A stretch of DNA of 32,000 nt from Staphylothermus hellenicus DSM 12710 (GTDB lineage: Archaea > Thermoproteota > Thermoprotei_A > Sulfolobales > Desulfurococcaceae), in NCBI RefSeq assembly GCF_000092465.1, contig NC_014205.1, positions 270,001 through 302,000 of the forward strand, in the 5' to 3' direction. Position 1 is the stretch's first letter. Every line of letters starts with the position of its first letter. Shown piece by piece: positions 469 through 31,951 of the stretch. The notes under the pieces are model-generated. The model searched no databases, was not told the origin of the DNA, and saw only the letters and a list, made by a program, of their open reading frames with translations. Position numbers and translations under genes: made by a program.

Positions 469-1332
469 TTATTGTTTCTTCACTATTGATTCAACTGTTC
501 TTTTCACCATTTTCAGCCATTCATCAGATCCGTTTCTACATGTTATGGTTAGGTTGTTTTTGTTGCTGAGTTCCTGGATAATATCTTTTCTACAGTTTAG
601 GAGTATTGAGTAATCTGTTGTTTTAAGCATTGGTATGTCATTGTATCCGTCTCCAACACCTATTGTTACTATGTTTTTATTGAATATTTCTTTTATGATC
701 TCAATTGTTCGCTGAGTTGCTAAGCCTTTATCATGGTTTCCTGTTATAAGGTATATGGTTCCAGAACCTGTTGAAACATTTAGGCCTCTAGCCTTGATCT
801 CTTCCACTATTTTATTGATTATTTCCCCCCTGACTAGTGGGTGGAATAAGTATGAGTATTCACGTTTGAGAGCCAATATTGATTGTTCAATGGGTAGACG
901 GGTTAATTCAGAGAATTTCTGAGGCGTAAAATCTTTGAGCCACAATATTTTTTCCCTTGTCTCCTCAATTATATCAATTATTTTCTGCTCAATAATACTT
1001 GTTTTCAACCCATTTACTATAACAATGTATTCATCAATTATGGAGTGCTCATATTTCTTCAGCATATCATGAACTAGCGAATTCTTATCAACAAGTTTTT
1101 TGGGGATAAAAGTTGCTGCCCCATTCTCCACTGTAAATATTGTTTTGCCGTGTAGACCCCATTTTTCAATATAGTATTCAATCTCATATCTTGTCTTCGA
1201 AGAATTTAGGATGAGTAAAATATTGTTTTCCAAAACATACTTTATGGCATCAATACTTTTCCTATAATCATATGTTTTATTAAGTAAGCAACCATCCATA
1301 TCCGATATAACTACTATTTTCTCTCCGCCCAT
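469..1332 (-). CDS. mpgP: mannosyl-3-phosphoglycerate phosphatase (HAD-IIB family)
   Basis: HAD motifs are present: SDMDGCLL at the N-terminus, NSSKTRYEIEYY (matches the NSSKTRAEQEYY block remembered from Pyrococcus MpgP) and GDGYNDIPML. It lies divergent from and adjacent to mpgS. Confidence 0.85.
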   Translation of the reverse strand: MGGEKIVVISDMDGCLLNKTYDYRKSIDAIKYVLENNILLILNSSKTRYEIEYYIEKWGLHGKTIFTVENGAATFIPKKLVDKNSLVHDMLKKYEHSIIDEYIVIVNGLKTSIIEQKIIDIIEETREKILWLKDFTPQKFSELTRLPIEQSILALKREYSYLFHPLVRGEIINKIVEEIKARGLNVSTGSGTIYLITGNHDKGLATQRTIEIIKEIFNKNIVTIGVGDGYNDIPMLKTTDYSILLNCRKDIIQELSNKNNLTITCRNGSDEWLKMVKRTVESIVKKQ

Positions 1333-1428
1333 AGCTTATCACATGTTTAGACATATTGTTCTATGCCAAAATATGAATACTGTTAAAACATTGTTGGTAA
1401 ATAGATATTATTGTTTGGAGGGATTGTT

Positions 1429-2619
1429 ATGAGAGTTGAGATGCCAAGATATATGGAGAGATTTGGAGCTATTAGGTTCTATAATGTTCAGAGAGTATTG
1501 GAGCTTAGCGGCGGTAAAACAAGTGATTTCAGCGGGGAAGTTCCGGGAACGATTAATGTGGGCAGTGGTGATATTGAGGAAATAGAAGCTAATATGACTA
1601 TTATTGTTCCAGTGAAGAATGAGAACCCGAAAGTCCTCGAGGGTGTGTTGAGTGGAATACCACATGATGCATTCATAGTTGTTGTGTCTAATAGTAAACG
1701 TGAACCAATAGATAGGTATAGGATCGAGCTCGATACATTGTTTCAATTCTACAGGTTAACACGTAGACCATTAATGGTTGTTCACCAGAAAGACCCCGTG
1801 CTCGGGCAAGCCCTCAAAGAAGCTGGTTATCCATATATAGTTGGAGATAATGGATACGTGAAGGATGGTAAGGGCGAAGGAATGATTATAGGATTATTAC
1901 TGGCTAAGTATCTGGGTAGACGATATGTTGGATTCATCGATTCCGACAACTATATCCCAGGAGCTGTTAACGAATACGTCCACATATACGCCGCCGGATT
2001 CTACATGGCTAAATCACCATACGCGATGGTTAGGATCAAGTGGCCATATAAAACAAAATTTGTTGGTAAAAGATTCTATTTCCGTAGGAGGGGGAGGGTT
2101 TCAGAAATAACTAATAGATATATGAACATGTTGATTGCATCGATCACAAAGTTTGAAACAGATGTTATAAAAACAAGTAATGCTGGAGAACACGCTATGA
2201 CGCTTGAACTAGCTGATAGAATAGGTTATTCAAGCGGGTTCAGCATTGAACCATACCAGATTGTTTATATGCTTGAAGAATATACTGGTTTAAAATCATC
2301 TAGATTCCCGGAGATCATGAAGGATACTATTGAAGTATTCCAAATAGAGCCTCGTAATCCCCATATTCACGAGGAGAGAGAGGAAACACATATACCTGAA
2401 ATGATTAAGCAGAGTCTAGCAACAATATATCATAGTAGATTAGCCGATGAATTCCTAAAGAATAGGATACGCGAAGAATTACTGGCTAGGAGAGCTATAA
2501 GCCGGGACGAAGAAATCCCTGAGCCTACAAAGTATCCGCCGCTAATAGAGGCTGATGCACGGAAGATATTTAAGATGCTAGAGGAGAGTAGCGACACTCT
2601 TATTATAAAGGAGTTTTAA
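1429..2619 (+). CDS. mpgS: mannosyl-3-phosphoglycerate synthase
   Basis: Near-colinear match to remembered Pyrococcus horikoshii MPGS blocks: VPVKNE, VVSNSKRE, VHQKDP, GKGEGM, GFIDSDNYIPGAVNEYV, GRVSEITN, NAGEHAM, SIEPYQIVY, FQIEPRNPHIHE, SLATIYHS. The track ORF starts at TTG 1411, but ATG 1429 is preceded by GGAGGG (1417-1422), so it is the preferred start. Confidence 0.93.
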   Translation: MRVEMPRYMERFGAIRFYNVQRVLELSGGKTSDFSGEVPGTINVGSGDIEEIEANMTIIVPVKNENPKVLEGVLSGIPHDAFIVVVSNSKREPIDRYRIELDTLFQFYRLTRRPLMVVHQKDPVLGQALKEAGYPYIVGDNGYVKDGKGEGMIIGLLLAKYLGRRYVGFIDSDNYIPGAVNEYVHIYAAGFYMAKSPYAMVRIKWPYKTKFVGKRFYFRRRGRVSEITNRYMNMLIASITKFETDVIKTSNAGEHAMTLELADRIGYSSGFSIEPYQIVYMLEEYTGLKSSRFPEIMKDTIEVFQIEPRNPHIHEEREETHIPEMIKQSLATIYHSRLADEFLKNRIREELLARRAISRDEEIPEPTKYPPLIEADARKIFKMLEESSDTLIIKEF

Positions 2620-5886: not shown

Positions 5887-6615
5887 CTAGGATCTCTCCT
5901 TAACAATGCTTTCTAGTTCCCTGAAAACACCGAGTTTTCTCTTCTCACCTAATAGTTCCCAAATAATACCTTTAGGCTTGGGCGGTCTTGGCTTAACAAT
6001 ATATATCCTAGTAGGGGTTGCCATTATATCTACTGTTAAGTCGTGTGGTTCTAAGGGAACATGATCAACTATTTGTATATCATGAATAGTTGTAACAACA
6101 TATACTTGTTCATCAATCGATCCTATTTCGCGTAGTATAGCATACTCTAGCTCTGCATAACCACCTCCCTTGCCAAGCCTTCCTCCCCGCCTATCTACTG
6201 CGACACAACCCGTTATGATAAGGTCTATCATTGGTATTTCACGGAGAGAAATCTTTTTTCCATAAATAAATGCTCCCCTAATAGTTGATGCATAACCATA
6301 TTTTGTAGAGGGGATTTTTGATGGGTCAAGTAATAGGAATCCTTCTCTCAGCCTAGGAGTAGCCATTACTAGTTTCTTACCATCTATTAAAGCATAGTAT
6401 CTAAGAGGTTTTTGTGGACTATCAGGATTAGCCTTTACAACTCCTGCTTTCCCCCATATATCTAGAGACCTTATCTTCGCAGCAGCTTGTTCTGCTCCAA
6501 CAAAATTAGGTATCCTACCATATACTGGTCTAGGAAATCTAGCTATGTTTTTCTTCTCCATAAGACTCCATATATGTTCTCTTATCTTCTTTTTTAGTTC
6601 TTTTATAGTATTCAT
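5887..6615 (-). CDS. 5-formyltetrahydrofolate cyclo-ligase family protein
   Basis: The size, the GRIPNFVGAEQAA block and the Gly-rich GGRLGKGGGYAELEYA block resemble the G.G.YDR region of the MTHFS family. Confidence 0.65.
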   Translation of the reverse strand: MNTIKELKKKIREHIWSLMEKKNIARFPRPVYGRIPNFVGAEQAAAKIRSLDIWGKAGVVKANPDSPQKPLRYYALIDGKKLVMATPRLREGFLLLDPSKIPSTKYGYASTIRGAFIYGKKISLREIPMIDLIITGCVAVDRRGGRLGKGGGYAELEYAILREIGSIDEQVYVVTTIHDIQIVDHVPLEPHDLTVDIMATPTRIYIVKPRPPKPKGIIWELLGEKRKLGVFRELESIVKERS

Positions 6616-6781: not shown

Positions 6782-7435
6782 ATGAGACCCGTGCTCCAGA
6801 TTGCTCTGGATGTAGACGACTTGTTTAAAGCATTAAGCATGTCTACACGTATAGTTGCTGAGCTTGGATGCGGAAACATATGGATAGAGGCGGGAACCCC
6901 GCTTATAAAGGCTTGGGGTAGAATAGGTATTGATGTTTTAAAGAAATCTACTAATTGCTTCGTTGTAGCTGATACTAAAACTATGGATACTGGGGCGTTT
7001 GAGGGTGAAATAGTTTTGAGTGCTGGTGCTGATGCATATACTGTGCTTGGTTTAGCTGATGGCTCAACAATTCGTGAATCCATAGATAAAGCACATGAAT
7101 ATAATAAGCTTTTAATTGTGGACTTAATAAACCATCCTAACCCATATAATAGAGCTCTAGAACTTGACAAGCTCGGCGTAGACGTGGTATTGTATCATGT
7201 TGGAATAGATGTTCAGCGCAGCAGGGGGTTAACAATAGATCAACTAATAGACGAGATCAAGATGCTGAGGAAAAACATAAATGCTAAAATAGCTGTTGCC
7301 GGCGGAATAAAGCATGGTAAAGCAAAACCATTAGTTGATGCTGGTGCAGACATAGTTGTTGTTGGCAGTGCTATAACAAAGGCAGAAGACCCTGTAGATT
7401 CTGCTAGGAAATTCTTAGAAGAAATACTATCTTGA
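6782..7435 (+). CDS. 3-hexulose-6-phosphate synthase-like protein (OMP decarboxylase/HUMPS superfamily)
   Basis: N-terminal LQIALD, EAGTPLIK, VADTKTMDTG, SAGADAYTV and C-terminal GGI...GADIVVVGSAIT follow the HPS/KGPDC TIM-barrel pattern. Confidence 0.68.
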   Translation: MRPVLQIALDVDDLFKALSMSTRIVAELGCGNIWIEAGTPLIKAWGRIGIDVLKKSTNCFVVADTKTMDTGAFEGEIVLSAGADAYTVLGLADGSTIRESIDKAHEYNKLLIVDLINHPNPYNRALELDKLGVDVVLYHVGIDVQRSRGLTIDQLIDEIKMLRKNINAKIAVAGGIKHGKAKPLVDAGADIVVVGSAITKAEDPVDSARKFLEEILS

Positions 7436-7441
7436 CATATT

Positions 7442-8548
7442 TTAGAAAGAAGGTATTTTCACTATTTTTTGGACAATACCCTCCTCCATTACTTCCTTAT
7501 ATCTTTTCTGGTGCTCAGTAAGCATTTCAACTAGTAGTTTAGCAGCTATTCTCTTATCTTCTCCGCAAAGTATTTTTCCCTCTACACATTCCTTATAAAG
7601 CTTGTATAGTTCTCGGTCATCTTTATATAGGAAATACATGTATAGCTCGTAAACTGTGCACTTCTCAGGTATTCCTCCATATTTTCTTTGCTCCTCAGCT
7701 GTTGCTCTCCCACCTGTAAGCGCCATCATTACTTTTCTCTTAATAATATCCGGTTTGTCTAGAAGAAATATTGCATAGTCTGGTCGAGAACTACTCATCT
7801 TGTTACCGTCGAGTCCTCGAATAAATTTGTGGTAGAATGAAGCTGGTCTGTTGAGTCCTAGTTCTGTATGGAATCTATCAGCAATGTCTCTGGAGAGCCT
7901 GAGATGAGGATCTTGATCGGCCCCTACAGGGACTAAGACATGTTTATATCCTCCATACTCTGGTAATTGTAGGTGGAGTATGTCTGCTGCTTGTGTTAGG
8001 GACGCAATTATTTTGCCGGGGCTTATATCTCCATATATAGCTTCCATTTCAGCCATACTGACTCTTCTTGAAAACATTTGTATTAATCTATAATATTCTG
8101 TTTTCTGCGCTGTTTGGAAATAGAATTCCGTCTTCTCCGGGTTAAGTCCCCACGCTATAGCATGGGCAATGTATTCGATTCCATATTTTATTGTTTCCTT
8201 ACGAGATAATCTACGGACAGCATATGCTTCTGCATCGGCAATAACGATTTTAACATGAGCACCAAGTTCTTGGAGAAACCTAAGCTCCTCGATCACCATT
8301 AAATGGCCTAGATGAGTATGTCCACTAGGCATAAAACCTGTTAGAACAGCTACTTTTTCCCCATTCCTAAGGGCTTGAAGCCATTTATCGAAGTCTCTGT
8401 GTCCGAACACTATTTTTCTATCAAAGAAATAATGTTTCTTTGGCAGCAAAGGTGTTGCTTTATCTATTGGTTCTATGCCGAATTGTTTAAATAGTTTATC
8501 ATATTCTTTAATTGCAAAATGACCCCATGGATCAAGTTTAATCGTCAT
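7442..8548 (-). CDS. trpS: tryptophan--tRNA ligase (archaeal/eukaryotic type)
   Basis: Class I motifs: HIGH-like PSGHTHLGH and KMSKS-like KMSSS. The N-terminal LDPWG...YDKLFKQFGI block is typical of archaeal TrpRS. Confidence 0.85.
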   Translation of the reverse strand: MTIKLDPWGHFAIKEYDKLFKQFGIEPIDKATPLLPKKHYFFDRKIVFGHRDFDKWLQALRNGEKVAVLTGFMPSGHTHLGHLMVIEELRFLQELGAHVKIVIADAEAYAVRRLSRKETIKYGIEYIAHAIAWGLNPEKTEFYFQTAQKTEYYRLIQMFSRRVSMAEMEAIYGDISPGKIIASLTQAADILHLQLPEYGGYKHVLVPVGADQDPHLRLSRDIADRFHTELGLNRPASFYHKFIRGLDGNKMSSSRPDYAIFLLDKPDIIKRKVMMALTGGRATAEEQRKYGGIPEKCTVYELYMYFLYKDDRELYKLYKECVEGKILCGEDKRIAAKLLVEMLTEHQKRYKEVMEEGIVQKIVKIPSF

Positions 8549-8551
8549 TTT

Positions 8552-9748
8552 TCATGCCCCATTTAGTCTTTTAAAATGGTATTTTACTGTGTGAATATAT
8601 AGATTGTTTTCCTTCACAAATATTTTATATGGGCTCCAAATAACCCTATTAATTATTGAACCATAGATATTGCCTGATCTATCATTAGCTATACCTAGAT
8701 CGACACCCATAAAATATGCTTTCTCACCTTCCCTTATGATTAGGGGTTTTTGTTTTACAGCATAATAACCATTAATAATTGTCATTTCAAGAAATATCTT
8801 GGGATCAATATCTTTATAGATCGTTTCCAACAATAATGTATCAACCCATACATCGGGATGGAAACAGCCAGCATTATCTGTTCCAACAGCTACTTTGACC
8901 CCATATTTTAATGCTTTATCTATACGAGGCAGTTTCCCGGTAAACCATAAGTTGCTTCTGGGATTCACAACTAATACGATGTCTTCATCTGCTAGGAGCT
9001 TATACTCCCAGTCTTCTAGGTAAACACCATGAACTATATGTGGTGGTTTAACTCTATAATTTAATAAATAATGTAGACTACCATGTTCTTCCATAGTTTT
9101 AGTCTCTGATACATGTGCTGATACTATTTTATCATTGGAGATTTGCGCATATTCGATCACTACCCAGGATGGGAGTTTGAGCGGGTTTGATATGCCTATT
9201 CCATCACAGTTTTTTAGAACATACCCTATTTCTTCCAGATCATATCTTGTTGGACGGGATAAACCAATATATTTTACTCCGTATCCTGATAATTCTTCTC
9301 TGAACTCGTTGCATCTCCAAAAGTGTTCTTGGTAATCAACAACTATACTGTATTGAGCCATGACATATGCTAATTCTTTGGGTAGTATAGGGTTTTTTAT
9401 GAGCTGTATTAATGGATGTTTTACTCCTTTTGATCCAGCATATGTGCTTAGATTATAGCCTATACAATGCTCTGGAACCCTGTAATCGTTTAAATGAGTA
9501 TGGGCATTAACTGGAAGAGGCAGTACAGCTCCTACAGTGTAATCAGCGTCTCTTCTGAAACCATGGTTAATTTCTTTTATAACTCCATTCTCTACAACAA
9601 TATGGCTCTTACCAATATCTTCTAGTTCGTATCCGTAGAGTAAATGATAAGTATTAATAATTAATTGGCTCAGTGCCGGAGACCCCTTCTTCACCTTTCC
9701 GGCTGGACTAGGATTCTTCATCGCCCTACACTCATTGTCTATAATCAA
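8552..9748 (-). CDS. amidohydrolase-superfamily aminohydrolase (COG0402 deaminase/chlorohydrolase-like)
   Basis: HxH metal motif VNAHTHLND, SAHVSETKTMEE (the HxxE...E block of the deaminase subgroup), VNPRSNLWFTGKLP (the cP.SN..lg.G block) and VAVGTDNAG (metal-binding Asp). An alternative start is the Met at 9721. Confidence 0.8.
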   Translation of the reverse strand: MIIDNECRAMKNPSPAGKVKKGSPALSQLIINTYHLLYGYELEDIGKSHIVVENGVIKEINHGFRRDADYTVGAVLPLPVNAHTHLNDYRVPEHCIGYNLSTYAGSKGVKHPLIQLIKNPILPKELAYVMAQYSIVVDYQEHFWRCNEFREELSGYGVKYIGLSRPTRYDLEEIGYVLKNCDGIGISNPLKLPSWVVIEYAQISNDKIVSAHVSETKTMEEHGSLHYLLNYRVKPPHIVHGVYLEDWEYKLLADEDIVLVVNPRSNLWFTGKLPRIDKALKYGVKVAVGTDNAGCFHPDVWVDTLLLETIYKDIDPKIFLEMTIINGYYAVKQKPLIIREGEKAYFMGVDLGIANDRSGNIYGSIINRVIWSPYKIFVKENNLYIHTVKYHFKRLNGA

Positions 9749-9811
9749 CTTATTTATACTTGTAAAGTAATATTTGAGTTTACGAAATATATTAGTGATG
9801 GAGGATAAATC

Positions 9812-10498
9812 TTGGTTAGCTGGCTCGATATTAGAAATGCATTGTTAAATGGTAAGCCCGTATTAATCTTTGATAGTATTGAGAGGGAAGCTGAAACAGA
9901 CATGGTTTTCTATGCTGGAATAATTGATTATAAGAAAATAGCTTATTTGAGGAAATATGCTGGCGGACAAATATGTTTTGTATCGGGCGGATTATTCAGG
10001 GAAGCCCTGGATCTGCCGTTTCTCCAAGACTTAATAATTAAGTATCCAAGCATAAGAGTGCTAGCCACGAGGAAACCAAGATACGGTGACCCCCCTGCCT
10101 TCAATATATGGTTAAACCATATAGCCACGAAAACTGGGATAAGCGATTATGATAAAGCATTAACTATTAAGACATTGTCTGAAATAGCATCATTGATCTA
10201 TAAGGGTTATATGGAGGAAGCTAGAGATAGGTTTCTCAAAGAATTCTATGCTCCAGGCCATGTTCCAGTTCTTACATCGAGAGGATTAGCTAATAGGAGA
10301 GGACATACAGAATTATCTGTTGCTTTATCGTTAATCACAGGTTTAACCCCATCTATGGTTATAGCTGAAATGCTTGATGAAGGGCAGAGTTTATCCTATG
10401 AAGATGCTAAGAGATTCGCAACTAGGAATGGTTTATTCTTTATAGATGGAGTAGACATTGTTGCAGAAGCGGAGAAGAGAGGGTTTTTGAATGATTAA
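9812..10498 (+). CDS. ribB: 3,4-dihydroxy-2-butanone 4-phosphate synthase
   Basis: IFDSIEREAETDMVFYAG, GGQICFV, APGHVPVL and RRGHTELSVAL match the RibB blocks (compare remembered M. jannaschii RibB). TTG start at 9812 with GGAGG at 9799-9803. Confidence 0.9.
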   Translation: MVSWLDIRNALLNGKPVLIFDSIEREAETDMVFYAGIIDYKKIAYLRKYAGGQICFVSGGLFREALDLPFLQDLIIKYPSIRVLATRKPRYGDPPAFNIWLNHIATKTGISDYDKALTIKTLSEIASLIYKGYMEEARDRFLKEFYAPGHVPVLTSRGLANRRGHTELSVALSLITGLTPSMVIAEMLDEGQSLSYEDAKRFATRNGLFFIDGVDIVAEAEKRGFLND

Positions 10499-10961
10499 AA
10501 TAGGTGTGGTTGACACTACTTTTTCTCGAGTTGACATGGCTAAGTACGCGATCGAAGTTATAGAGGAGAATCTTCCAGAAGCAGAAATTATTCGCTACAC
10601 TGTTCCCGGAATAAAAGATATACCTGTAGCTGCTAGGAAGCTGTTAATTGATGAAGGCTGTAATGCTGTATTAACGCTTGGATGGGTGGGTCCTGGACAG
10701 GTTGATAAATATAGTTATTTAGCTATGAGTGTGGGTTTGATAATGCTACAAATTATGACGGGCAAACACGTTATTGATGTAACTGTTCACGAGGACGAAG
10801 CAAGCGATCCAGATGAGCTTTACAACATAGCTGTTGATCGAGCAAGGAAACATGCTTTAAATCTTGTAATGCTAGTTAAATATGGTAGAGAAGCTTTAAC
10901 ACAATATGCTGGCAAGGGCCTTAGACAGGGCAGACCCGATGCGGGCCCGATAAAGGAATAA
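10491..10961 (+). CDS. ribC: archaeal-type riboflavin synthase
   Basis: 156 aa. The N-terminus [16 protein letters not shown] matches the remembered M. jannaschii riboflavin synthase start (VGIVDTTFARVDMA). It overlaps ribB by 8 nt. Confidence 0.85.
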
Positions 10962-10981: not shown

Positions 10982-11434
10982 TTGGCTCGCATAGGAATAG
11001 TTGTATCCGAGTTCAACTATGACATTACTTATTTAATGCTTCAAAAAGCGCTTAGCCACGCTAAATTCTTAGGATTAGAAGTAACATATGTATTCAAAGT
11101 ACCGGGAACATATGAAATTCCATTCGCGGTAGCAAGTCTATTAAAAAGAAATGATGTTGATGGAGTAGTAGCTTTAGGAGCTGTTATCAAGGGTGCTACA
11201 AAACACGATGAACTGGTAGCTGGTCAAACGGCTAGGAAACTAATGGATTTAATGATACAATACGGTAAACCAGTAGGGTTAGGAATAATAGGTCCTGGAG
11301 CAACACGTATGCAGGCTCTGGAGAGAGTGGAAGATTATGCTAGAAGAGCTGTTGAAGCAGTTGCTAAAATGATCAATAGATCTAGAAGTTTGGAAGAAAA
11401 GAAATTCACTAGTGAAACAGTTTTCATAGAATAA
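10982..11434 (+). CDS. ribH: 6,7-dimethyl-8-ribityllumazine synthase
   Basis: [32 protein letters not shown] and GLGIIGPG form the lumazine synthase pattern. TTG start with GGTGGGAG upstream. Confidence 0.9.
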
Positions 11435-11471: not shown

Positions 11472-12179
11472 GTGCCTAGGATCACAGTGATAAGGTTATT
11501 GAAATATCGTAAATGGACAGAAGAATTAGGTTATGATAGAGAATGGATTATACAGAAAAAACAAGCTAGAACATATGATATTCTACAAACACTTTTCTCC
11601 AAGAAAAATGGGTTCGTGGTTCCCCTAAGATATGATCACTACTTAGCTCTTAGCAATGGAATAGATAAGGAGACTCACCAAGAAATACTTACCGAAATAG
11701 ATCCTGTAACGCCTTATGGAGTAAAAATTGTTTCAATCGCTCATAAATATCCTGCAATAGGACAATTAATAGCATCTCGCCTATTAGAGGAGAAGCCAGG
11801 CAAGATCATATATTTAGATGGTGTGGAAGATGAAAATGTAGTTGTACATATTGATTTCAACAGTGTTACCATGTATACTGAGATGACGAGTATTTTTGAA
11901 TCATATATGAGGATCCTTGAACTATATGATATAGTTACAAAATATGTGTTTCAACTTGGCGGTATAACTAGTTATCTTGGCGGGGACAATATGTTGGCTG
12001 TAGTTCCCGAAAATAAATTGGATGAACTACTTGAACTAATACCTTCTTATCTCAAAGCAGGTGTTGGATTATCATATGTGCCGAGAAAAGCACTTCTTCT
12101 AGCCTCAAAAGCATTAACGATTATTAGAAGCGGCAAGGTAGATAAGAGATTTCTTATTCTCCGAGACGAAGACGTATGA
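11472..12179 (+). CDS. arfA: GTP cyclohydrolase III (FAPy-forming, archaeal riboflavin/F420 route)
   Basis: ITVIRLLKYRKWTE..., LALSNGIDKETHQEI, HIDFNSVT and YLGGDNMLAV are colinear with remembered MJ0145 blocks (ITVIQIDNYGPWT, IAITNGIDLITHKRI, HIDINNIT, FIGGDNFMA). GTG start. Confidence 0.85.
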   Translation: MPRITVIRLLKYRKWTEELGYDREWIIQKKQARTYDILQTLFSKKNGFVVPLRYDHYLALSNGIDKETHQEILTEIDPVTPYGVKIVSIAHKYPAIGQLIASRLLEEKPGKIIYLDGVEDENVVVHIDFNSVTMYTEMTSIFESYMRILELYDIVTKYVFQLGGITSYLGGDNMLAVVPENKLDELLELIPSYLKAGVGLSYVPRKALLLASKALTIIRSGKVDKRFLILRDEDV

Positions 12180-13425
12180 ATTCATATAATAATAAAGTTG
12201 CTGAGATGATTGGGCCTAAATAATATATATATGCTAAAGCCTCGGCTTCTCCGCCGCCACTATGTGGTGGGTTGAAGTAGCTTGTTGATAAATTACTTGT
12301 GTTTGTTGAAAACAAGGTATTTGATGCTGTTGATGTGTTTTTGCCTATCGAATACTTTGTCGTTATAGTTGTCGTAGTTGTTGTAGTTGATGTATGGTTT
12401 GGTTTGGTTAAGATACTTAAATATATGGTTTTAAATAATGTAGTGCTTTTACCAGATGGATCTACTGCTGTAATATTTAAGATCAAGGTTTTATTTGTCT
12501 CATTTATTATTCCGGAAGAAGATACATTATATATGGATATCGTAGTAGAACCATTTGTTTTGAAACCTGCTAGATAAATTTTAAATGGTTCTTGTTCTTT
12601 TTCTTTTGGATAATAATATTTTACGTATAGCCTAGTATCTTCCGTATTCACTCCGTCGCATATGTTAATTGTAAGTAGTATTTTATAGAAATATTCATGG
12701 TTTATTTTTCGAATAGAATATGTTGATCTTTCAACACTAACTATTGGATTATGTGTATCAACTATTATTTTCTTTTCCTCGATAATTTCCTGATTAAATC
12801 TTATAGTTATGCTGTGTTTTTCCATCGTGTTAAGTTGTAGAACATAGTTTTGCAACGTATTATTATTGAGGAGGAGATAATGATTATCTATTACGCCATT
12901 GATCAATATTTGTGTTGTTGCTGTATTATTTTCTAAAAGCATAGTTTGATTGTTTCCAAATACATAGAGGAGCTTATATGTAATACTAGCGGGTTCCAAG
13001 TATTCATTGTATATATTAATGCTTGTTTTAAATATTGTATAATTTAATGTTATTGTTATGTTTTCGTTATCAACATTGATTTTTCCACTATATATTTCGC
13101 CGTAGATCCAATAATATACTTTTATATATACAGTTTTAGTGATTGCATTGTATTCCGTGGTTATCGTTGCAACGCCGTCATTATTGGTTTTGCCAGTGTA
13201 TTCATGTGTAGAATAAATAGTTGGCTTAACAATTATTTCGGCATTGGGTAGTGGTTTATTATCTAGTAAACTTAGCTTTATGTGAAGTGTGATCACATCT
13301 TCCATGTTCCAATATAATGCGAAGCTTATAATAGGCGAATTCATAATTATGAGCATAAATATCATTATGACCGATATTAAGTTTTTAAAGATCGATGTTC
13401 TATGATCAGCATTGTTGATCAGCAT
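12154..13425 (-). CDS. predicted surface-anchored glycoprotein (N-terminal TM/signal, Thr-rich stalk, C-terminal TM anchor)
   Basis: Hydrophobic N-terminus (ISVIMIFMLIIMNSPIISFAL), many N-x-S/T sequons, a TSTTTTTTTITT stalk and a C-terminal hydrophobic helix (LAYIYYLGPIISATLLLYEFI) followed by RLRLGE. No family was recognised. Confidence 0.6.
   Translation of the reverse strand: MLINNADHRTSIFKNLISVIMIFMLIIMNSPIISFALYWNMEDVITLHIKLSLLDNKPLPNAEIIVKPTIYSTHEYTGKTNNDGVATITTEYNAITKTVYIKVYYWIYGEIYSGKINVDNENITITLNYTIFKTSINIYNEYLEPASITYKLLYVFGNNQTMLLENNTATTQILINGVIDNHYLLLNNNTLQNYVLQLNTMEKHSITIRFNQEIIEEKKIIVDTHNPIVSVERSTYSIRKINHEYFYKILLTINICDGVNTEDTRLYVKYYYPKEKEQEPFKIYLAGFKTNGSTTISIYNVSSSGIINETNKTLILNITAVDPSGKSTTLFKTIYLSILTKPNHTSTTTTTTTITTKYSIGKNTSTASNTLFSTNTSNLSTSYFNPPHSGGGEAEALAYIYYLGPIISATLLLYEFIRLRLGE
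12355..12390 (-). repeat. low-complexity ACN-codon run encoding the poly-Thr stalk
   Basis: The plus strand reads gtcgttatagttgtcgtagttgttgtagttgatgta. Its reverse translation gives the spurious poly-Val ORF 12299-12577. Confidence 0.8.
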
Positions 13426-31197: not shown

Positions 31198-31273
31198 TAT
31201 ACCTTATATTTTCTATTTATCTTAATATTTTTGATTGATTAGGGGATTGGAAATAATTGGTGTTTATTTGAAA

Positions 31274-31951
31274 ATGGAGAGACCATATATACTAGTGTTT
31301 TCAACGATTAGTGTTGACGGAGGATTATCTGTTAAAGGTAAAAGATACAGGCTGAGCAGTGATAGGGATATTTATAGACTGCATTATTTTAGATCAATTG
31401 TAGACGCTGTAATGGTTGGTGCTAATACTGTAATAATAGATGATCCATTGCTAACTGTGCGTTTACCCGACTATAAGGGTAAGCAACCATATAGAGTAGT
31501 TGTTGATGGTAAGCTAAGGGTTATGCCTGAGCTTAGAGTATTTGATACAAGACATGCTCCAACAATACTTATCACAAGCATCAATAATAAGGATAGAGAG
31601 ATGATTAGGAGGTTTCTATCAAGGGGTGTGAGGATATTATTTGTTGACACAGATAAATATGATCCCTCAAAAATTGATCTTAGAAAAGCTGTTGAAAAAT
31701 TATATCGCGAATTTTCTATTAGGAAAATACTTGTTGAGGGCGGGGGACAATTAATAGCTTCTCTATTCAAAAACAGATTAATCGACGAATTATATTTATC
31801 GATCTCTCCATTAATTATTGGATTAAACAAGACCTCGTTGATTGAAGATTTCCTTGATTCTCCGGTAAGGCTTGTTCTTAAAAACATATTTGTAGACCAT
31901 ATAACAGGAGAGATAATTGTTAATTATAAACCATTCTATGAAGATCATTGA
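31274..31951 (+). CDS. arfC: 2,5-diamino-6-(ribosylamino)-4(3H)-pyrimidinone 5'-phosphate reductase (RibD C-terminal-domain type, archaeal ArfC)
   Basis: RPYILVFSTISVDGGLS, DAVMVGANTVIIDDPLLTVR, YRVVVDGKLR and ILVEGGGQLIASLF are colinear with remembered MJ0671. The track ORF starts at TTG 31235, but ATG 31274 is preferred. Confidence 0.85.
   Translation: MERPYILVFSTISVDGGLSVKGKRYRLSSDRDIYRLHYFRSIVDAVMVGANTVIIDDPLLTVRLPDYKGKQPYRVVVDGKLRVMPELRVFDTRHAPTILITSINNKDREMIRRFLSRGVRILFVDTDKYDPSKIDLRKAVEKLYREFSIRKILVEGGGQLIASLFKNRLIDELYLSISPLIIGLNKTSLIEDFLDSPVRLVLKNIFVDHITGEIIVNYKPFYEDH

Follow-up and report, generated by a model that had tools for sequence, protein, structure and literature searches.

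In archaea, the deamination of 2,5-diamino-6-ribitylamino-4(3H)-pyrimidinone 5′-phosphate is one of the last two steps towards the riboflavin and F420 precursor without a biochemically proven enzyme. The locus described here raises the question of whether an amidohydrolase gene of Staphylothermus hellenicus, transcribed divergently from a cluster of riboflavin genes, supplies it. The gene lies in a stretch of 32,000 nucleotides from strain DSM 12710 (the window), and coordinates are those of the window unless another record is named. According to Rodionova et al. (2017, PMC5397151), archaea lack orthologs of the RibD-type deaminase; on the strength of gene clustering and co-occurrence, Osterman, Overbeek and Rodionov had put forward a candidate, ‘PyrD’, in 2010, and in 2017 this was still a prediction awaiting test. 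HVO_2483 and MJ0699/Q58110 were later named as the candidates by Pfeiffer et al. (2021, PMC8305020), who likewise called for experiments. The protein family of the candidate is unstated in both texts, and a literature search on the MJ0699/HVO_2483/Q58110 family found no published assay or knockout. The preliminary description of the window had stated that the deaminase is not assigned in archaea; this holds for experimental assignment but not for prediction, the MJ0699/HVO_2483 family having been proposed in 2010 and restated in 2017 (PMC5397151) and 2021 (PMC8305020). Because the hypothesis has been in print since 2010, the window adds support rather than discovery: the gene is a well-supported rediscovery, and a new, divergent member of the predicted MJ0699/PyrD family. 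Its candidacy as a riboflavin-pathway deaminase, also put forward in that description, is supported by orthology, co-occurrence, linkage and catalytic residues, and we place the probability that it encodes the archaeal 2,5-diamino-6-ribitylamino-4(3H)-pyrimidinone 5′-phosphate deaminase at roughly 0.8.

The open reading frame spans positions 8552–9748 on the minus strand and comprises 398 amino acids when counted from a TTG codon, as given by the list of open reading frames and the translation. It is a real gene, as judged from matches to Pfam Amidohydro_1 and NCBIfam NF005552 and from an identical protein on record (P0002 in the protein collection). The recorded protein has 389 amino acids and begins at the ATG at 9721, which is residue 10 of the open frame. 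This ATG is preceded at a distance of 30 nt by a minus-strand TATAAATA box (9758–9751), which is only 3 nt from the TTG at 9748. Translation probably begins at this ATG rather than at the TTG, because P0002 starts there and the spacing of the TATAAATA box fits the ATG, which would make the predicted pyrimidine deaminase gene, encoding a TIM barrel of the amidohydrolase superfamily, 8552–9721 (minus strand, 389 aa; numbering below follows this form). With a start at 9721 the spacer to ribB becomes 9722–9811, so that the AT-rich divergent intergenic region read from the sequence is probably 90 bp long and not the 63 bp (9749–9811) first described. Within this spacer, a near-palindromic element, TATTTATA/TATAAATA, occupies 9751–9758 and is likely the TATA box of the deaminase-candidate gene. 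On the ribB side, AAATATATTA (9785–9794) and GGAGGA (9800–9805) precede the TTG start of ribB. The TATTTATA/TATAAATA element, which lies between the two genes, might also act as a two-way TATA box.

Divergence from a ribB-ribC-ribH-arfA cluster had been proposed for this gene, and family models confirm all four neighbors on the plus strand. They are ribB (9812–10498, TTG start; PF00926, 143 bits; NF004437, 266 bits, above cut-off), the archaeal-type riboflavin synthase gene ribC (10491–10961; TIGR01506, 220 bits, cut-off 100.55), ribH for 6,7-dimethyl-8-ribityllumazine synthase (10982–11434; TIGR00114, 143 bits, cut-off 84.6) and arfA for GTP cyclohydrolase III (11472–12179; PF05165, 137 bits). 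The gene for ArfC, a RibD_C-type pyrimidine reductase whose product is the proposed substrate of the deaminase, is found 21 kb away from the rib cluster (31235–31951, plus strand; PF01872, 137 bits). On the other side, trpS, encoding tryptophan–tRNA ligase (7442–8548, minus strand; NF008925, 571 bits), begins 3 nt past the stop codon of the deaminase candidate, and the two genes are probably co-transcribed. The same gene order recurs in two further genera of the family, with TrpS encoded directly downstream (loci L013 and L014). The position of the gene outside the rib operon, divergent from it and in a probable transcription unit with trpS, counts against a riboflavin role.

At the level of the protein, the product of 8552–9748 passes the Pfam Amidohydro_1 cut-off with 28.5 bits, and its entire length aligns to NCBIfam NF005552 (PRK07213, ‘chlorohydrolase’; E = 2.9e-35). 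The NF005552 score is 121.9 bits versus a cut-off of 294, which is the threshold of one model and does not define a biological clade; the next-best model reaches 52 bits. By this measure the shortfall marks the branch of the window protein as divergent. The motifs quoted in the preliminary description are all present, namely NAHTH (HxH), SAHVSETKTMEE (HxxE), PRSN and GTDNAG. Alignments of 18 and of 126 homologues identify N72, H74, H76, D79, K101, E132, H203, E206, H231, N257, G280, D282 and N283 as invariant, and H74, H76, H203, E206, H231 and D282 are invariant both in the 126 homologues and in a 38-member clade discussed below. In the amidohydrolase superfamily, HxH on strand 1, HxxE on strand 5, a histidine on strand 6 and an aspartate on strand 8 of a (β/α)8 barrel define the mononuclear deaminase subtype. 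As read from these alignments, the window protein has the complete residue set of this subtype (H74/H76, H203 with E206, H231 and D282). A domain search found no dCMP_cyt_deam_1 domain in it.

The AlphaFold model shows a confidently predicted amidohydrolase barrel (pLDDT 94.8). The solved structures closest to the model are TM0936 (an MTA/SAH deaminase), AtzA and other COG0402 deaminases and hydrolases, with TM-scores of about 0.7 and 13–20% identity. No member of the family appears to have been solved, because a profile search of PDB sequences found no closer relative, and a look-up in the ESM Atlas returned generic ‘amidohydrolase’ clusters only. A conserved N-terminal tail (MKNPSP...VKKGSPA; first residues of the protein, 9694–9721) is common to the clade of the window protein and absent from MJ0699-type members; it has low confidence in the model.

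The window protein is, by sequence, a member of the MJ0699 family. The route to MJ0699 ran from a representative search to Methanotorris igneus, and from there through a homolog search to a cluster look-up, in which the protein P0432 was identified as Q58110/AAB98692.1 and carries the name ‘Uncharacterized protein MJ0699 / atrazine chlorohydrolase isolog’. In Methanocaldococcus lauensis, a sibling protein is annotated as ‘Pyrimidine deaminase archaeal predicted’. The window protein and MJ0699 share 27% identity over 359 amino acids (E = 3e-26), and when the S. hellenicus genome (a single contig of 1,580,347 bp) was searched with MJ0699 by tblastn, the best match was this open reading frame with 105 bits, followed by a match of 67 bits. 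A clade of 38 rows unites the window protein, MJ0699 and the M. lauensis protein with an SH-aLRT value of 99 in a maximum-likelihood tree built by quick search with no bootstrap. Outside this clade fall the DadD-like and SsnA-like paralogs of the same genome and the aminofutalosine-deaminase-like proteins. Within it, the window protein sits on a long branch in a sub-clade of the order’s own sequences (support 99), and this long, divergent branch accounts for its low NF005552 score (122 versus 294), for which MJ0699 reaches 589 bits and a Methanolobus protein 308 bits.

The MJ0699/HVO_2483 family corresponds to NCBIfam NF005552 and to the SEED role ‘Pyrimidine deaminase archaeal predicted’ (‘PyrD’), with a function that is a published prediction. 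Its likeness to the window protein extends to near full-length homology, best reciprocal matches, the same invariant catalytic residues, the clade-specific residues D79, K101, E132, N257 and N283, and the same genomic association with rib and FO genes. The window protein differs from the MJ0699 type in its divergent branch, its conserved N-terminal tail, the pairing of its gene with trpS and the divergent orientation towards the rib operon.

Linkage of the gene to arfA, arfC, ribH or ribC, raised earlier as a point to be checked, is kept in several independent arrangements across archaea. The gene is divergent from ribB in the family to which S. hellenicus belongs, and other genomes hold same-strand clusters in the orders arfA-ribC-ribH-gene (G025), gene-arfA-ribH-ribC (G036) and arfA-gene (G033). 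In two further families the gene lies close to ribH, at about 0.8 kb in 22/22 genomes (f14) and at no more than about 1 kb in 7/7 genomes (f13). The reductase gene arfC adjoins it in three genomes (G026, G027 and G038). A contig-wide search for related loci, in which the best 80 loci were all from Methanosarcinales, placed arfC about 1.5 kb downstream of the gene in at least 36 loci of Methanosarcinaceae, and adjacent to and divergent from it in at least 13 loci of Methanotrichaceae. The variation of the gene arrangement between lineages favors functional coupling over inherited synteny.

Co-occurrence of the ortholog group with riboflavin or FO genes, likewise suggested at the outset, was borne out in two samples. 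Among 41 genomes of the order, a short-form gene is carried by 30/30 of those with the archaeal riboflavin synthase gene ribC; in the remaining 11, which are without ribC, the short-form gene was not found, and these genomes have long-form paralogs only, or nothing. A second sample comprised 151 genomes of the phylum, at least 90% complete, searched with the family profile and for ribH. The gene and ribH were both present in 53 and both not found in 88, the gene was present with ribH not found in 7, and ribH was present with the gene not found in 3; these counts describe a pattern and are not a statistical test, and they overstate statistical support because related genomes are not independent samples. 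All three genomes with ribH only hold a copy that is divergent (just sub-threshold) or cut by the end of a contig. Five of the seven genomes with the gene only were examined, and all five have it in one operon together with arfC and cofH, the gene for FO synthase. The compound 5-amino-6-ribitylamino-uracil is the precursor common to riboflavin and FO/F420. Since the five ribH-less genomes with FO synthase genes keep the gene, it tracks the production of 5-amino-6-ribitylamino-uracil and not riboflavin as such.

Under the preferred reading, the enzyme would stand in for the cytidine-deaminase-fold domain of bacterial RibD and fungal RIB2 without being homologous to it. By analogy with the amidohydrolase superfamily it would be a mononuclear metal enzyme of the deaminase subtype, in which H74, H76, H203 and D282 would hold the metal and the attacking water, and E206 (of HxxE) and H231 would shuttle protons. 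The 2-amino group of a 2-amino-4-oxopyrimidine ring would be exchanged for oxygen, the reaction on the ring being that of guanine, isocytosine and pterin deaminases, and the product would be 5-amino-6-ribitylamino-uracil 5′-phosphate. Once dephosphorylated, this product would feed RibH and RibC, which are encoded on the other side of the divergent promoter, and in other archaea also FO/F420 synthase. The substrate, its phosphorylation state and the metal are what we infer here, and the order of the steps is taken from the literature on M. jannaschii.

The fold and catalytic residues are common to deaminases that act on guanine, cytosine, adenosine, MTA/SAH or 5′-deoxyadenosine, and some members of the family are listed in databases as ‘cytosine/adenosine deaminase-related’ or ‘MTA/SAH deaminase’, so the protein could be a base or nucleoside deaminase unrelated to flavins that adjoins the rib genes by chance. 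This is very unlikely. The scores of the window protein on curated models of 5′-deoxyadenosine, MTA/SAH and guanine deaminases are 27–52 bits, against cut-offs of 375–779 (for example, 27.7 bits on NF005557 with a cut-off of 522, and 27.5 bits on NF012037 with a cut-off of 779). Three other amidohydrolase paralogs are present in the genome (466 aa; 495 aa and SsnA-like; 431 aa and divergent), and the 466-aa paralog fits the 5′-deoxyadenosine and MTA deaminase models far better, with 383–396 bits. Maximum-likelihood trees exclude these paralogs from the clade of the window protein, and an MtaD/DadD identity was rejected on the curated-model scores and on the fit of the 466-aa paralog, which lies outside the clade. 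Clustering with characterized MTA/SAH or 5′-deoxyadenosine deaminases, which the preliminary description had named as part of what would speak against a riboflavin role, was seen neither in the models nor in the trees. A deaminase unrelated to flavins also fits poorly with the distribution of the gene, which was not found in the 11 relatives without riboflavin genes, where long-form paralogs are kept, and which follows arfC and cofH in the five examined ribH-less genomes. COG0402 deaminases (TM0936, 1p1m/1j6p; guanine, 8-oxoguanine and isocytosine deaminases; DadD) share the TIM barrel and the HxH/HxxE/H/D residues, and their guanine-type members attack a 2-amino-4-oxopyrimidine ring, as proposed for the window protein. 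The window protein differs from them in being shorter (about 370–390 versus 430–480 aa), in falling outside their clades and in having D79, E132 and N283, which are not found in these deaminases. As a separate observation, the 431-aa paralog (L099:1104–2399; G000 at about 556603–557898) has lost metal-site residues, with the second His of HxH replaced by Arg, the strand-5 His by Gln and the strand-6 His by Asn, and could be devoid of catalytic activity or serve a different function.

Genomic context cannot separate the steps within one pathway, which leaves room for a different role in the same route: deamination might take place on the ribosyl form, ahead of reduction, or on a dephosphorylated intermediate, or the enzyme might hydrolyze the formamide made by ArfA, sharing or replacing the role of ArfB. 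COG0402 includes an enzyme acting on formimino groups (HutF family hits), and two genomes of one family (G030 and G040 of f7) and the control Methanosarcina acetivorans have ribC and the deaminase candidate with no match to PF05165 or PF00925. As G030 and G040 have the gene and ribC without GTP cyclohydrolase III or II, the early steps vary among archaea, in keeping with such a role. An attempt to exclude an ArfB-type function by means of ArfA-less genomes was dropped, the same genomes being also without GTP cyclohydrolase II. Against a different role, ArfA, a creatininase-family ArfB candidate (G000 52072–52548, creatininase-family match) and ArfC are encoded by separate genes in the S. hellenicus genome, and the ArfB candidate is found in 30/30 ribC-positive relatives, adjoining the gene in G025 and G003; the presence of this separate creatininase-family gene settles the ArfB question. 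M. jannaschii, too, has the characterized ArfB family in addition to MJ0699. The HxxE glutamate is a signature of ring deaminases in the amidohydrolase superfamily and is invariant here, and arfC, the recurrent neighbor, encodes the enzyme that acts just before the proposed step. A different role in the same pathway thus seems unlikely. With these genes assigned, only deamination and dephosphorylation are left unfilled, and the window protein has the residues of a deaminase. That it could instead be the missing phosphatase for 5-amino-6-ribitylamino-uracil 5′-phosphate has the context evidence equally on its side, the amidohydrolase superfamily includes phosphoesterases, and the phosphatase step is also unassigned in archaea (PMC8305020). 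The invariant HxH, HxxE, H and D nevertheless match a single-metal deaminase site, and the genome offers no deaminase of another fold for the deamination step, its sole cytidine-deaminase-fold protein being a tetrameric cytidine deaminase that scores above the equivalog cut-off; a phosphatase is therefore highly improbable. The Desulfurococcaceae-type branch, with its length, its conserved N-terminal tail and the pairing with trpS, could also differ in function from the MJ0699 type, by acting on a ribosyl or dephosphorylated substrate or by combining deamination with a second step such as dephosphorylation, which we regard as quite unlikely.

If the proposed deaminase function is correct, the reaction is the same as that of the N-terminal domain of RibD and of fungal RIB2, whose fold (a cytidine-deaminase fold) and metal site are unrelated to those of the window protein. 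With RIB2 the window protein would share the substrate as well, namely diamino-ribitylamino-pyrimidinone 5′-phosphate, deaminated after reduction (PMC8256712, PMC12542839). The locus would then represent a clear case of non-orthologous displacement, with a TIM-barrel amidohydrolase in the role of a cytidine-deaminase-fold enzyme, and thousands of annotations that read ‘chlorohydrolase’ or ‘amidohydrolase family protein’ would be corrected. With respect to experimental work, the enzyme, coming from a hyperthermophile, could prove stable enough for assays and crystallography.

Several other features of the window and of related genomes were recorded alongside the deaminase candidate. In a genome without ribC, a creatininase-family gene stands beside a long-form, 468-aa amidohydrolase paralog (G004:C1:1317514–1319699), in a pair unrelated to the riboflavin cluster. 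At the far end of the rib cluster, an open reading frame of 423 aa on the minus strand (12154–13425) runs towards arfA and shares 26 nt with the 3′ end of that gene. It has no family match apart from a weak Pfam hit below the threshold. Just beyond trpS are a 3-hexulose-6-phosphate-synthase-like gene of the OMPdecase family (6782–7435, plus strand; TIGR03128, 168 bits) and a 5-formyltetrahydrofolate cyclo-ligase-like gene (5887–6615, minus strand). In archaea without the oxidative pentose pathway, 3-hexulose-6-phosphate synthase leads to ribulose 5-phosphate, which is the substrate of RibB. Near the start of the window (469–2619), genes for mannosyl-3-phosphoglycerate synthase (541 bits) and a HAD-type phosphatase are neighbors and likely form a pair for the compatible solute mannosylglycerate.
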